Positions 14,057 through 64,000 of a stretch of 64,000 nucleotides of DNA are shown piece after piece. Every line of letters starts with the position of its first letter. Positions within the stretch are counted from its first letter, which is position 1. The notes below the pieces were generated by a model. The model was not told the origin of the DNA, made no database searches, and saw nothing but the letters and a program-made list of their open reading frames with translations. The DNA comes from a virus (lineage: Duplodnaviria > Heunggongvirae > Uroviricota > Caudoviricetes), in the IMG/VR virus record IMGVR_UViG_3300009784_000001, positions 182,418 to 246,417 of that record, one strand, 5' to 3'. The translations under genes and the position numbers were made by a program.

Positions 14057-16855
14057 ATGGCAAATTATCCATTACAATTTAATAGGGCTTTTAAAAATCC
14101 ACCTTTTGCAACAAGAAATGATGCAATAGATTACATAGAAAATACTAAGCTAATAAATGATCCATTGGTAGAAGGACAACCTTATGTTGTATCATATGGA
14201 AATCCAACAAATCCAAGTGTAATATTAGCAATTGGAACAATTAGTGGAAAATGCTATTTATTTGATCTTGGGAATATAGAAGAAGAACTAGCTACCAAGG
14301 TAGATATAGCTAATGCAGGTATATTAATATCTGATATAGCTATAACAAATATTACATCAACTAATATAATTTTAACTGTTACTTACAGAGATACAAGTGA
14401 TGGTACTGAAACATCTACTACTATTGTATTAAACCCTGCTGATTCTATTAATAGTGGTCTCATGATAGCAGATGATAAAGTGAAATTAGATGCTTATCCA
14501 ACATATGATGTTATTGATACAAGATTTACTGCAATAGAAGATGAAGTAACCGATCATGAAACAAGAATAGAAACACTTGAAGCAACTGTTAGCTCACAAG
14601 GAACAGATATTTCTGATTTACAAACTGCATTAGCACAAGAAGTGATTGATAGAACAAATGCAGATACCACATTGCAAACTAACATTGACAATGAAGCAAT
14701 TGCAAGAACAAATGCAGATAATCAATTACAAACTAATATTGATACAGTACAGACAAATTTAGATAATGAAGTAACAAGGGCTACTAGTGTTGAAGAAGAT
14801 TTACAGAATCAAATAACAGGGTTAGGAAATAACAAAATTGATAAAAATGGTATACAAAATACATTATTTGGAGTTGTGGATGATACTTTATTTGAAATAC
14901 CAAGAGGAACAAAAGATTTGTGGGTAAATTCAAACGCAACACAAAATATTGCCTTAACAAATGGTACACAATTTTTCCCATTTTTAACAATTACCAATGC
15001 TATATCAAGTATTTCAAGTGGAGAATCTGAAACTATACATTTAAGTAGTGGTTGTTCTTTTAATGAAGGAGTTGCTTTGACTTTAAATAATAATGAAAAT
15101 TTAAGTATAGTTCTAGAAGGAGCTGATGACCAATTTAGATCTGATGTAACTGGAAATGTTATTATTGGTGGTACTTCTACAAATGTAGGGTTAAAAGGAT
15201 TTAAGGTTAATGGAAATATGAATTTATCTTCTTCAGTTGGAGATATATTCTTAACAAATATGTTAATTAATGGAGTAACTACAATAGATGGAAATGGTTA
15301 TTATTATCTAAAAGATTGCCAATTTGAAAATAACTTAAATATAACAAGTGCTTCTTATGTAATTATTGATGGTGCTTATAATGAAAAAAATACTGTAATA
15401 GCTGTAAATAATCCAGATGCTAATGTTATCTTAAAAGATTCAATGAATATTACTTTAAATATAATTAATGGTAAAGTAATAGTTCAAGGCTCAACAAACT
15501 TTATAGTATCTCCTAATTTACCAGGTGGAAGATGTATCAGTGCGCAAAGTGGATTTTTAGATTTGTTGTCAGGAACTGCACAACAAGAAGATGGAACTTA
15601 TGCTCCTATTGCGATAGGCGCATCAGCAAGTTATAGTCTTGGAAAATTTATATTTGAACCAACAAACAGTATATTGAATGGTACATTAATTGATGGTGGT
15701 TTACATTCATTACAAATATATGATCATATAGTAAGAACTGGATACACACACACAGGAGATACATTAAATAAACATTTTGATGGTATATCAGATGCATTAA
15801 ATGGGCATACAACTCAAATAACAAATTTACAAAATGAAGTAGATAAAAATACTTCTGATATAGCAGCTTTACAAGGTGGAATTACTTTTTTACCTTCATA
15901 TAACTTTGGTGATCCAAGTGATACAACTTTATATCCTTCACATGCAGTATGGCAAAATACATTAAATCAATATTCGTTAAGTTTTGGAATTACACCTGTA
16001 AATGGGCTATCTGTAACAAATTTATGGAATAATCACAGATGGACTTATTCTCAAGCAATGTTGGAATGGATAGATCAAGGAAATGACATAGTAAAAGTTG
16101 CAACAAATTCATTAGCAGGTATTGTTAAAGGAATAGATTCAGGAACAGGTGCATTAGGAACTATATCAATAGATAATAGTATTGGAGAAATGTCTGTAAA
16201 TGGATTAGTAAACGCATTAAATTTAAAAGCTGATTTAAGTTATGTTGATGAACAACTAGATCTAAAAGCTGATGCTTCTACTGTAACTGATATGAACAGT
16301 ACATTACAAAATCAGATTACTAATTTAAACACTAATTTAACAAACGAAATAACAAGAGCTACTAATGCAGAACAAGTATTAACTAATAATTTAACAAATG
16401 AAGCAACTATAAGAGCAAATGCTGATGTTACTTTACAAAATAATATTGATGCACTTGAAACTAATTTAAACAGTGAAATAATAAGGGCTACTGGTGTTGA
16501 AAGCAATTTACAAACAGCAATAAATGGACATGAAAGTAGAATAACAATACTGGAAGGAACTTCAAGTACTAATACATCTAATATTACACAATTACAAACT
16601 GATTTAATTAATGAAATTAATACAAGAAACAGCCAAGTAATGACAATAAATTCAAATGTTAGTACTTTACAAACACAAGTAGGAATTTTGAATACACAAG
16701 TTGGTACTTTACAAACACAAGTAGCTACTTTACAAGAACAAGTAGTAATAAGTGGCGCATTTGACAGTGTTAGTGGAAATATATTATTAACAACAGCAAG
16801 TGGAAGCATTATAACTATAACATTAACAGGTATTTCAAATTATGGAACATTTTAA
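14057..16855 (+). CDS. Tail fibre / spike protein with beta-helix and coiled coils
   Basis: N-terminus shared with 16879 (MAN..LQF...TR.DAI.YI...P.VV.YG); PFLTITNAI beta-helix start; heptad repeats. Confidence 0.75.
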   Translation: MANYPLQFNRAFKNPPFATRNDAIDYIENTKLINDPLVEGQPYVVSYGNPTNPSVILAIGTISGKCYLFDLGNIEEELATKVDIANAGILISDIAITNITSTNIILTVTYRDTSDGTETSTTIVLNPADSINSGLMIADDKVKLDAYPTYDVIDTRFTAIEDEVTDHETRIETLEATVSSQGTDISDLQTALAQEVIDRTNADTTLQTNIDNEAIARTNADNQLQTNIDTVQTNLDNEVTRATSVEEDLQNQITGLGNNKIDKNGIQNTLFGVVDDTLFEIPRGTKDLWVNSNATQNIALTNGTQFFPFLTITNAISSISSGESETIHLSSGCSFNEGVALTLNNNENLSIVLEGADDQFRSDVTGNVIIGGTSTNVGLKGFKVNGNMNLSSSVGDIFLTNMLINGVTTIDGNGYYYLKDCQFENNLNITSASYVIIDGAYNEKNTVIAVNNPDANVILKDSMNITLNIINGKVIVQGSTNFIVSPNLPGGRCISAQSGFLDLLSGTAQQEDGTYAPIAIGASASYSLGKFIFEPTNSILNGTLIDGGLHSLQIYDHIVRTGYTHTGDTLNKHFDGISDALNGHTTQITNLQNEVDKNTSDIAALQGGITFLPSYNFGDPSDTTLYPSHAVWQNTLNQYSLSFGITPVNGLSVTNLWNNHRWTYSQAMLEWIDQGNDIVKVATNSLAGIVKGIDSGTGALGTISIDNSIGEMSVNGLVNALNLKADLSYVDEQLDLKADASTVTDMNSTLQNQITNLNTNLTNEITRATNAEQVLTNNLTNEATIRANADVTLQNNIDALETNLNSEIIRATGVESNLQTAINGHESRITILEGTSSTNTSNITQLQTDLINEINTRNSQVMTINSNVSTLQTQVGILNTQVGTLQTQVATLQEQVVISGAFDSVSGNILLTTASGSIITITLTGISNYGTF

Positions 16856-16878
16856 TAAGATAAAAAAATAAGATAAAA

Positions 16879-19800
16879 ATGGCTAATATATTACAATTTT
16901 TACACACAAATCAGCTTTTTCCTACAAGAGGAGATGCTATTACATATATTGATTTAAATAGACCAGATCCTCTGGCATCAATTATAGCCGAACCAATAGT
17001 AGTTAAGTATGGAACAAATGAAGCAACAGCATCAATAATTCTTGGTATTGGAACTAATACAAAATATTTTTATTTTGATACTGATTTTCTTCAAGAAGAA
17101 ATAGATACTATAAATACAACTGTTAGTTCAACAGGAACTGAAATAACAACTATTAAAACTGATATTGCAACAATTCAATCATTACTGAATACTGTTATTA
17201 CTGCAAGTGGATTAAATAGTAACGGAACTTATAATCCTACTGTAGGAGGTGCAACAAGTCTTGCTAATGCAGATGCTTTATTATTAAATCAAATTAATAC
17301 TTTAATTGCTAATCTTAATAGTGGAGTTCAAAAAACACATCCTGTAATATCTACTGTTTCAAATAATTTAATATATTCAGAAATTGATAATGGTATTGCT
17401 GTTAAAATAGATAGTTTTTCATATGAACCTACTACTGGTGTTTTAACATTAAGTTTTAATAATGTAACTACTCCTTACACAGTAAATTTAGGTTTAAATG
17501 TTATAGGTTTTCAATCAATAACTTTTGATTCTACTACTGAATCATTAATTATTATTTATCAAACAACTGGTGGAGGAACACAAACTGTAACAGTACCTGT
17601 TTCTGGAATGTTTTCTAAATGGGAAGTGGATAATCCTATAACTAATGCAGTTGTATTAACAAAAACATTAGGTGGAGTTGGAGGAGTTGATAAATTGTCA
17701 GGAGATGTTAAAGTTGATACTACATATCCTCATAATATATTACAAAAAAATCCTGTGAATGGTTCGCTTTATGCAACAGGAGTTTCTGATAATATATCAT
17801 TTAATGGGACAAGTCAAAATGTAACTGATAAAATAAATTCAATAGCACTTGATATTTCTAATGCTGCTGCTAATGCTGTAAGTAATGCTAATGTATATAC
17901 AAATACACAAATAGCACAAGAAGTTATTAATAGAAATAATGCTATTGCAAATGGTGTTAATGCTGCAAATACTTATACAGATGGTCAAGTATCTGTAGTA
18001 TCTAATCAATTATCAAATATTCAAAATGTTGTTATACCTGCTGAAGTTGCTGCAAGGCAAAATGCTGATAATGCTTTACAAGCACAAATAAATGCTTTGC
18101 CAACAATTGATACAAGAATTACATCAGGAGAAGTATTAAACAATGGAACTTTATTAAGATTATATTATGGAACAGCAACAAGCCCTAATATGGGTAGTTT
18201 TGATATTAACACAACTACTTATGTTCAAAATCCTGACCAACATTTAACGAGTGGTATAGTTGCATCAGATGGTAGTACATTAACAATAAATTATGGAACT
18301 GGAGCTAGCCAAGGTAGTATAATTATACCAACAACTACTTATATGGATGATAAACATATTGTTTCTGTTACACTTAATAATGGAATGGATACTACACCTG
18401 TTTATGACCCAACATTAACATTTCTTCACAATAATGGTATGATTGTTACTGCTCATTTAGATGCATTAGCAGGAGCAAAAGGTATCAATAGATTTCAACT
18501 TGCCCCTGGTGGAGGTTCTCTTTTAATTGAAACATTTGATGGTACTGATTTTAATATTCCATTAAGTGATTTTCTTGGAAATTTTAGTACTTCAACAGAA
18601 ATAGAAGCACAATTAGCATTAAAACAAGATAAGTTAATAGCAGGTAGTAATATAACTATTGTTGGTAATACTATTAATTCAATAGAACCACATCAAGGAA
18701 CTGTTACTTCTATAATAGCTGGAAATGGTTTAAGTGGCGGAACAATAACAAGTACAGGAACAATAGCTCTAAATGCTGCAACTACAGCAACATTAGGTGG
18801 TGTTATTGTAGGCTCTGGTATAAATGTAACAGGAGGAACAATAAGTCTTAATGTGGCTTCTGTTCCACAAGGAACTGTTACTTCTGTAACAGCAGGAGGA
18901 GGTATGGATTTTTCAGCTATTACTGCATCAGGCGCAGTTGCATTAGGAACTCCATCCACAATAGGACCAAATACATCAAATGCAGTTTCAGGAAATACAC
19001 ATACTCATAATGTGGCATTAGGATTTAACATAAGTGATTATTCAACTACAAATCAAGTTGCTAATATGATTACTAATGCCACAAGTAATGTAATGGTTAA
19101 TGCTACATTAATGTATGACTTAAATGTAAATGCAGTTTCACAAGATTTAAATATGTTTAAATTGTCTTTGGCAACTAATACATTGTCTTATTCAACAATA
19201 GTAATGCCTATTGCCACAAATACTAACAATGGATATATGCCATATCAAGATCATGTTTCAATTCAAAAATTACAAACTGATGTATTAGGACTATTATCTG
19301 CTGGTGGAAGATTTGTAGAACAATCTTTTCCAACAAAAGCTGCTTTATTAGCATGGATTGTACCACCAACTGTTAATCCTGGCGATTTCACTTATGTTCA
19401 AGCTGATGAAACTCAAACAGCAGTGGCAGGAAAATATCCAACTGTAAAATATATGTGGAGCACTGCTCATACATGGACATTTGTAATAATAATTAATGAA
19501 GGAAGTTATCCAATAGCAACCACAGGCTATATAGGATTAGTTAAGGGTTCAACTGCAAATGGTCAATCATATGTTGAAACTGATGGTACTATGTCTTTAA
19601 ATGGATATGATGTAATAGTTGCACATATGGCAAACACTTCAAATCCTCATAATGTAACAAAAGCACAAGTTGGTTTGGGAAATGCAGATAATACATCTGA
19701 TATAAATAAACCAATATCAACAGCTACTCAAGCAGCATTAGATCTTAAAGCTCCACTGGCTAATCCTGCACTTACAGGAATACCAACAGCACCAAATGCA

Positions 19801-62623: not shown

Positions 62624-63418
62624 ATGGAAAAGGATAAAAAAATAGTTGAAAATTATCAAAAAAGGTTTAAACTTTTGAATGAATATTCGTTTTATACTAA
62701 TACATTATCAGAAGAAGGTGAAGAAAATTTACCACCTCAACAAGATATGGGTGGAGGAAATTTACCTGATACTGGTAATCAATCAGGAGGGGAAATGCCA
62801 CAACAAAATCCACAAGGAGATGCTGCACCAATGAGTCAATTACCACAAGATTCACAAGTTCCTCCTCAAAATTCACAAGGAATGGAAGATAATTCGATGC
62901 CTCCTATGGAAGGAGAAAATAACATTGAGGATATTGAAATGGATGATGATAGTAATGTTGAAGAAATAGAGATTACAGATTTAGTAGATACACAAGAACA
63001 AACTCATAATGAAGTACAAGAATTAGATACAAAATTTCAGCAATTTACAGATTTTGCTGAAAAATTAACACAAAAGTTGGATGATGTAATTAGTAAATCA
63101 GAAGAAACAGAAAAACAAATACAAAATCTAGGTCAAGAGATTGTTAAAAGAAATCCTACTGAAGTTGAAACCTTAAATTTACGTTCCCTTCAATCTTTTC
63201 CATTTTCTGAAAAAGTTGATGATTATTGGGAAAAGAAAGCAAAAGAGAATCCTAATTATAATATTATTTCTAATAATGATGTTAATAAAGATAAGGGAGA
63301 ATATGTATTAACTCAAAATGATATTGATTCAGAAACTGGAAATAATTATGATATTTATAAATCTTTTGATGATGATAATACTTTTAATAAAAGTTTATCT
63401 GATTTATTAGATTATTAA
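62624..63418 (+). CDS. Acidic coiled-coil protein, candidate prohead scaffold/core protein
   Basis: KLLNEY, LSEE, P/Q/M-rich disordered linker, acidic tract, coiled coil, LRSLQSFPF. Confidence 0.55.
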   Translation: MEKDKKIVENYQKRFKLLNEYSFYTNTLSEEGEENLPPQQDMGGGNLPDTGNQSGGEMPQQNPQGDAAPMSQLPQDSQVPPQNSQGMEDNSMPPMEGENNIEDIEMDDDSNVEEIEITDLVDTQEQTHNEVQELDTKFQQFTDFAEKLTQKLDDVISKSEETEKQIQNLGQEIVKRNPTEVETLNLRSLQSFPFSEKVDDYWEKKAKENPNYNIISNNDVNKDKGEYVLTQNDIDSETGNNYDIYKSFDDDNTFNKSLSDLLDY

Positions 63419-63419
63419 T

Positions 63420-63450
63420 TTTGAATTTTAAAAATAAAAATATATTTTTG
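63420..63450 (+). promoter_or_regulatory. Bacteroidetes-type sigma-70 promoter
   Basis: TTTG (63420-23) N19 TATTTTTG (63443-50). Confidence 0.65.
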
Positions 63451-63452
63451 AT

Positions 63453-63930
63453 AAAAGTGTAATTTGACATCTGTGAAGCGTTTGAAGACAGCAGTTACCA
63501 TTTGAGGGTTATATAGGAGGTAATAAGATTTGCTTGTATAATTTAAGAAAGATGGCTCTCCAATCAATAATCGAAAGATGAATAATGATTGAAATACCAA
63601 CAGCCCTTTTAGACTGATAAAAATATTGAATATATTAAGATCACTTTAGAATTGTCACAAAAAAGGAAGATTTATCTTCTAGGTTGGGGTAAAAGAAAGC
63701 TGGACTGTTCGATGGATTGTAAGGCTTGATAGTTCGTTCTTTGAAAATTTATTATTTTTTAAACAAAAGTCCTTGGAAAGATAGGTTAAATATACCCTTA
63801 TTCGTTTAATGGTGAAAAAATTAAGTCCTTGGAAAGATAGGTTAAACAAAACTGTTCAGACTACATATTATGATGAATCAGTATGGGATAGACAGGGAAA
63901 AAGAAGTATAGATTATATATGCGCAGTGTA
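63453..63930 (+). ncRNA. Candidate large structured RNA / long leader of unknown family
   Basis: No ORF of 60 aa or more on +; more GC-rich than other spacers; several helices and a 24-nt direct repeat. 3' end is not defined. Confidence 0.5.
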
Positions 63931-64000
63931 ATTTTTATATGGTTTGAAAATAATAAAAAATAGAGGAATAGTAATAAAATACTTGAATTATGTTTGTGTT

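Follow-up and report, generated by a model that had tools for sequence, protein, structure and literature searches.

The DNA analysed here, referred to below as the window, is a stretch of 64,000 nucleotides corresponding to bases 182418–246417 of a 359,943-bp virus record (IMGVR_UViG_3300009784_000001) with direct terminal repeats. The genome has a G+C content of 26%, and as none of its 22 tRNAs identified with ARAGORN is a suppressor tRNA, the standard genetic code applies. Towards the end of the window, a 264-aa gene of unassigned function (62624–63418, + strand) is followed by a long spacer that continues past the window end, up to a gene for a 354-aa product that resembles the single-strand-DNA-binding protein (SSB) gp32. 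The latter was located in L002, the DNA downstream of and overlapping the window end (window coordinate = L002 coordinate + 62582), where it occupies positions 1660–2724 on the + strand. Its match to PF08804 (31.3 bits versus a cut-off of 26.8) assigns to the gp32 family the gene beyond position 64000, whose identity had been named as a point to check in a preliminary description of this DNA.

Genes for a thymidine kinase, a RecA/UvsX-like protein and a 5'-3' exonuclease/flap endonuclease, and a DnaB-like ORF, are found 3' of the gp32-like gene, which opens the replication/recombination module of the phage. On its other side, the 264-aa gene is a conserved neighbour: most of the related loci that were inspected encode a homologue of 250–290 aa directly 5' of gp32, in the same orientation. 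A homologue with 70% identity is the first gene on a 1,750-nt LSPZ01 metagenome contig (gi 1001888039). In Pfam, no family scores above the cut-off for the 264-aa product. A tblastn search of GenBank phages with gp32 gave no match, which means that the phage has no cultured relative there, and a profile built from the gp32 alignment found nothing among PDB sequences.

One base past the stop codon of the 264-aa gene, with no terminator in between, begins a promoter of Bacteroidota type, P1 (63420–63450, + strand), composed of TTTG at 63420–63423, 19 nt, and TATTTTTG at 63443–63450. TAnnTTTG is the established Bacteroidota promoter consensus, and P1 agrees exactly with the sigma-A-type arrangement of TTTG at -33 and TAnnTTTG at -7, about 19 nt apart. 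As TTTG-N18-20-TAnnTTTG sites occur 87 times in the genome, many of them 5–40 nt 5' of an ATG ORF on the same strand, the phage truly uses promoters of this type. Judged by these promoters, its host may be of Bacteroidota type. The TAnnTTTG motif is also present in PMC6847099, according to which Bacteroidota lack Shine-Dalgarno sequences and A/U-rich start regions are normal there.

The ORF-free spacer extends from 63419 to 64241. With ORFs of at least 50 aa masked, its 823 nt rank first in the window, where the next has 463 nt, and fourth in the genome, and the distance from P1 to the next ORF of at least 90 aa is 792 nt. There is no second full promoter motif within the spacer, and neither a host-type promoter nor a canonical terminator occurs from P1 to its last ~180 nt. 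The preliminary description had thus been right about the promoter ending at 63450, the sequence of which we verified, about the lack of ORFs, and about this being the longest non-coding stretch of the window; its end point of 63930, on the other hand, falls well short of the real extent. In the following, we distinguish the flagged stretch (63451–63935), the part to which that description drew attention, from the continuation of the spacer (63936–64000 and on to 64241), which contains a tandem duplication, a branched fold, a hairpin and an A/U-rich tract before the gp32-like gene. Two of the three longer spacers in the genome contain tRNA genes, and both have a G+C content of 0.31–0.32. The third, 972 nt at genome positions 16098–17069 with a G+C content of 0.21, has neither a tRNA nor an ORF of at least 50 aa.

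The G+C content of the flagged stretch is 0.308 between 63469 and 63935, compared with a spacer median of 0.17, with 0.265 in coding sequence and with 0.12 at third codon positions, in keeping with the earlier remark that the region is more GC-rich than other spacers. As plain neutral sequence should be richer in A+T, a value of 0.31 implies some constraint or a recent origin. Furthermore, G (0.20) is twice as frequent as C (0.106), giving a skew of +0.31 that equals that of the neighbouring + strand coding sequence and is unlike the tRNAs of the phage, in which G+C ranges from 0.43 to 0.50 and skew from 0 to 0.19.

No credible ORF is present in the flagged stretch under translation table 11 or three alternative codes. 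Reading TAG as Q, TGA as W or TAA as Q gave no convincing frame, and with no suppressor tRNA in the genome these codes were rejected. The longest + strand ATG ORF under table 11 has 40 codons (63809–63931) and is probably not a gene, as its codon score of 6.8–9.4 lies in the lower quartile of real genes and its frame is disrupted by stops and a 4-nt indel in L084, the close relative introduced below. Apart from the weak score over this non-conserved ORF, no frame carries a codon-usage or 3-base periodicity signal. The preliminary description had listed a match to a degraded protein-coding gene among the results that would tell against it; stop-to-stop pieces of the stretch match nothing in Pfam or PHROGs. 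Six-frame translations resemble nothing elsewhere in this genome or in the related loci, with the exception of L084; the match to its spacer is found in every frame and is therefore one at the level of DNA. No DNA homologue was found in GenBank phages or in five related jumbo genomes, and searches of IMG/VR and metagenome contigs for exact 22–24-mers gave no match. A repeat family with members elsewhere in the genome was considered and rejected, the only matches being promoter-like or short and A+T-rich.

The one close relative, L084 (LSPZ01000764.1, 2,081 nt), was found with a degenerate pattern back-translated from the N-terminus of gp32. Its gp32 is 88% identical to the present one, and all of the 303 nt that it contains upstream of the AUG align with the spacer. 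As a neutral yardstick, we used the third positions of identical gp32 codons, which are 75% identical between the two. Identity is 85–95% over the last ~130 nt of the spacer, ~75–80% at 63900–63965 and ~45–55%, with indels, at 63850–63895; being near or below the yardstick, these last two values indicate that the comparable part of the flagged stretch is not conserved above the neutral level. L084 retains the 3' end of the flagged stretch, 100 nt or more, likewise without an ORF, and lacks ~107 nt further on, corresponding to the first copy of the TGTATACGCCA unit (see below) and a stretch of 12% G+C at 63969–64018.

The claim that the region is highly structured is not borne out. Folding of 481 nt of the flagged stretch gives a z-score of +1.0, the fold being equalled or bettered by 82 of 100 dinucleotide shuffles, and the reverse strand a z-score of +1.8; no 120-nt window on either strand has a z-score below -1.8. 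The helices named in the preliminary description do exist in the sequence. However, with z-scores of -0.7 to -1.1 for individual hairpins, they are no more than chance gives, and the part that bears an exact direct repeat even folds worse than its shuffles (z +1.5 to +1.8). The covariance-model scan that had been proposed as a check returned no match at either level of stringency: Rfam 15 gave nothing at gathering scores across the window, and a permissive search of 63300–64000 and of L002 1250–1720 yielded only snoRNA, miRNA and lncRNA noise with E > 1. Among 16 related loci, Rfam found nothing except one tRNA. The window contains no tRNA or tmRNA, in keeping with the impression by eye that the flagged region resembles neither.

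Covariation, the other proposed check, can be assessed with the one relative from 63835 onward, the 5' 385 nt (63451–63835) having no comparison sequence. In this comparable part of the flagged stretch, RNAalifold pairs 14 positions with their partners and none of the 14 pairs is compensatory; compensatory changes do appear in a hairpin outside it, where two of seven pairs are of this kind. The flagged stretch resembles ROOL, GOLLD, HEARO, OLE and raiA in being several hundred nucleotides long, ORF-free, phage-borne and provided with its own promoter. It differs from them in that no covariance model matches it, its folding energy shows no excess, the comparable part lacks covariation, G is twice as frequent as C, and conservation reaches no further than one close relative, at or below the synonymous level. 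The suggestion of a large structured RNA in the spirit of ROOL or GOLLD thus finds no support, and on our best reading the flagged stretch is not a discrete, densely folded RNA. If this is right, the result is a correction, in that no new class of large structured RNA is present here, and it would mean that promoter-led, ORF-free stretches in A+T-rich phages should be subjected to shuffle and base-composition tests before they are called structured.

Signs of RNA structure are instead concentrated in the continuation of the spacer, just before gp32. This part contains an imperfect tandem duplication of ~93 nt with the unit TGTATACGCCA..CTGGTGCA..TAACTTTTTT, the copies lying at L002 1460–1500 and 1552–1595 (64042–64082 and 64134–64177). 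A 9-nt patch is inverted between the two (ATAAATCTG versus CAGATTTAT), and L084 has a single copy. RNAalifold predicts a branched, terminator-like fold at L002 1516–1592, with a 7-bp outer stem, a small hairpin and, over TGTATACGCCA..CTGGTGCA, a long imperfect hairpin; the fold ends directly in U6. It is followed by a 7-bp leader hairpin with a 4-nt loop (L002 1613–1630), again predicted by RNAalifold with L084. This is the hairpin with the two compensatory pairs, reading GTATGA/TCATAC here and GCATGG/CCATGC in L084. By eye, we see no conserved partner for its loop that would form a pseudoknot. The last ~32 nt 5' of the AUG are unpaired in the fold and contain AAUAAU, UUAAA and UUAAG. Both the hairpin and this open AAUAAU/UUAA-rich tract (64195–64241 together) lie outside the flagged coordinates and outside the window. 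On the best-supported reading of these predictions, the functional RNA structure would be this proximal module, 64098–64241. The preliminary description had offered, as its second suggestion, a structured leader for the next gene; it is supported in so far as that gene is gp32 and the hairpin has two compensatory pairs, and fails in so far as the module is not within the 480 nt that it described.

The small words of the proximal module recur in distant relatives. A protein search with gp32 gave 37 relatives, and an alignment-based scan of IMG/VR gave 80 loci, mostly on contigs of 200–390 kb and with 30–40% identity. About 75 related loci have the same two flanking genes, with a gap of only 120–175 nt between them. 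In this gap, a terminator hairpin with a T run is followed by a TTTG..TAnnTTTG-like promoter and a leader of 55–90 nt with a small hairpin of variable sequence, and the last part of the leader, up to the AUG, has 9% G+C with AAUAAUAAUUU-like words. AAUAAU or UAAUAA is found at -50 to -13 in 73% of 41 gp32 leaders compared with 10% of 174 control upstream regions, a difference to be read with the caveats that the control set is rough, that the phages are related, and that A/U-rich start regions are general in Bacteroidota. In one distant subgroup, the hairpin at the corresponding position of the leader also has two compensatory pairs. An uncultured clade of 200–390-kb phages with Bacteroidota-type promoters thus keeps a hairpin and an AAUAAU-rich open tract before gp32.

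The gap is not equally short in all relatives. In two of them, L036 (1230–1532) and L051 (3669–3910), a canonical promoter is followed by an ORF-free leader of 180–230 nt that is richer in G+C and in hairpins; Rfam finds nothing in either, and if structured gp32 leaders are sought, these two may be more promising than the flagged stretch. In the lineage of L045–L049, the gap holds a gene for a 64-aa bS21 protein (PF01165, 52 bits; L045:3620–3811, and also in L046, L048 and L049), and in L066 it holds a 62-aa ORF. In T4, the equivalent gap is occupied by the homing-endonuclease gene segG, which RB69 lacks (PMC535899). Taken together, the bS21 gene, the 62-aa ORF, the longer leaders and segG mark the gap as an insertion hot spot, of which the present spacer is the extreme case.

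We give a probability of about 0.5 to the reading that gp32 has an expanded leader, whose 5' part is the flagged stretch, with a lineage-specific insert at this hot spot. Most likely, P1 would start a very long gp32 leader of ~790 nt, in which the flagged ~480 nt would be a weakly constrained insert that changes fast through duplication, inversion and indels; other lineages have also received insertions at this site. Control of gp32 output would probably reside in the conserved proximal module, outside the flagged coordinates, in the order of an attenuator- or terminator-like branched fold down to U6, the 7-bp hairpin, and an open AAUAAU/UUAA-rich RNA tract of ~30 nt, start codon included. We assume read-through from P1 to gp32. 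Against a leader of this kind stand its length, about ten times the norm of the family, and the one or two terminator-like folds that transcription would have to pass; a phage-specific, non-host promoter near gp32 may exist, and would leave P1 driving a separate RNA.

The leader of T4 gene 32 is ~70–140 nt long, and the nucleation site of its operator is a 5' RNA pseudoknot of ~28 nt, next to which an unstructured tract with UUAAA/UAAA-type repeats covers the start region. Gene 32 of T4, T2 and RB69 is controlled by an autogenous translational operator (PMC535899; PMC3014915), the T4 version of which has a folded element and, after it, an open tract rich in UAA that spans the start site (PMC535899). 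The proximal module shares with it the position in the 5' leader of a gp32-family gene, ending at the AUG, and the sequence of a small folded element, here the 7-bp hairpin, and an open A/U-rich tract with UAA-type words that leads into the start codon. A further common feature is the variable gap before gene 32, which accepts insertions such as segG in T4. By analogy with T4, we propose that gp32 binds and represses its own leader: the hairpin would serve as a structured nucleation site, from which gp32 would coat the open tract and so block initiation. There are also clear differences from the T4 operator. There is no sequence homology, no partner for the hairpin loop that we could see by eye, and no Shine-Dalgarno sequence, the last being expected for a Bacteroidota-type host; moreover, the leader would be ~790 nt if started at P1, and T4 has nothing that corresponds to the flagged 480 nt. 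If the proposal is true, the layout of T4 gene 32 control extends to hosts without Shine-Dalgarno sequences, and the gap upstream of gp32 is once more seen to be an insertion hot spot.

A G+C content of 0.31, as against 0.12 at third positions, does not fit plain filler, and this keeps two other explanations alive, both of them unlikely and neither ahead of the other. According to the first, P1 drives an independent non-coding RNA of ~500–650 nt that ends at the first terminator-like unit (~64040–64085) and has its own role, for example as a sponge, a decoy or an anti-defence RNA, with gp32 being transcribed from an unrecognized phage-specific promoter. In its favour, P1 is a real host-type promoter with no ORF behind it, the G+C content lies far above the spacer median, the other long and G+C-richer spacers of the genome contain tRNAs, and L084 has kept the end of the stretch ORF-free. 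However, its folding is unremarkable both globally and locally, Rfam does not know it, its excess of G over C sets it apart from the phage tRNAs, no compensatory pair is seen where identity, itself no higher than at synonymous sites, can be compared, there is no canonical terminator on the + strand, and the five related jumbo genomes have no homologue.

The second explanation, no more probable than the first, is that a small cassette of promoter plus gene, either a moron or one encoding a free-standing homing endonuclease, landed between the 264-aa gene and gp32, and that the insert is what is left of it after erosion of the reading frame. Such cassettes, of which segG of T4 (PMC535899) is an example, resemble the insert in their position relative to gp32, in having their own promoter, in the size of a small gene and in being confined to one lineage, and the bS21 gene and the 62-aa ORF show the same gap filled elsewhere. 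P1 lies directly behind the upstream stop codon, as in a cassette, while such promoters are elsewhere found 20–40 nt before an ATG; the extra ~650 nt would fit a gene of ~200 codons, and the base composition is that of + strand coding sequence. The insert, unlike these cassettes, has neither an ORF nor any protein similarity left, and none of its frames shows coding periodicity or a codon-usage signal: its stop-to-stop pieces match neither Pfam nor PHROGs, six-frame similarity is limited to the DNA-level match with L084, and L084 has no ORF there either.

Less likely still, we think, is that P1 makes a purine-rich RNA of ~600–800 nt that is specific to the lineage and deliberately weakly folded, and that would serve as a binding platform, acting either in cis or in trans. 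It might, for instance, titrate gp32 of the phage itself, or else an RNA-binding or defence protein of the host. Protein binding would take place at the two copies of a 24-nt direct repeat, AAGTCCTTGGAAAGATAGGTTAAA (family D2), which lie at 63767–63790 and 63823–63846 on the + strand and are exact, with 32 nt of unique sequence between them. What speaks for this reading is that the repeat-bearing stretch folds worse than its shuffles and has a G+C content far above the neutral expectation.

Among the local exact repeats of at least 18 nt in the genome, this is the only one with a spacing (56) that is not divisible by 3, and of its copies L084 keeps only ATAGGTTAAA of the second, 10 of the 24 bases. 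A DNA-level role, either as a replication origin with iteron-like repeats and an A+T-rich unwinding stretch or as a one-spacer CRISPR-like mini-array or repeat mimic (24/32/24 nt), is improbable: this is the genome's only non-coding local repeat, GATAG occurs four times at a spacing of 51–56 nt, 63969–64018 has 12% G+C and the replication module begins directly downstream, but the 24-nt repeat has only two copies, L084 lacks the A+T-rich stretch and one distal unit copy and preserves little of the repeat, there is no other CRISPR-like array in the genome, the 32-nt 'spacer' is unmatched in GenBank phages and IMG/VR, and the 24-nt repeat is absent from IMG/VR and metagenome contigs. An origin identified by GC skew was rejected, as cumulative skew follows gene orientation and does not turn at the spacer.

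Two 10-nt direct repeats, AGTGTAATTT, bracket 63466–63924 and were considered as a target-site duplication. They were rejected, since, as estimated from composition, 823 A+T-rich bases should contain ~2–3 such 10-mers by chance. In the region of the small hairpin of the proximal module, 64107–64129 (TAGGTGGTTAAATAT-GGAAAGA-CCTT; family D9) contains the words of the 24-nt repeat at 63771–63793 (CCTT-GGAAAGA-TAGGTTAAATAT) in permuted order, which suggests local template switching within the spacer.

Two further observations were made in the course of the searches. The only relative of gp32 in the GTDB species genomes, with 30% identity, is encoded by a contig of 56,585 nt (CATEWF010000002.1, L083) in a Mycoplasmatota MAG bin; this is probably a phage contig, and by itself no evidence of the host. 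Elsewhere in the present genome, a tRNA-Phe(GAA) that neither default ARAGORN nor the Rfam gathering score calls is recovered on the + strand at 300160–300282 (L085:1161–1283) with the intron option of ARAGORN. It has an intron of 42 nt in the anticodon loop and lies ~110 nt past a host-type promoter, ahead of the tRNA array.
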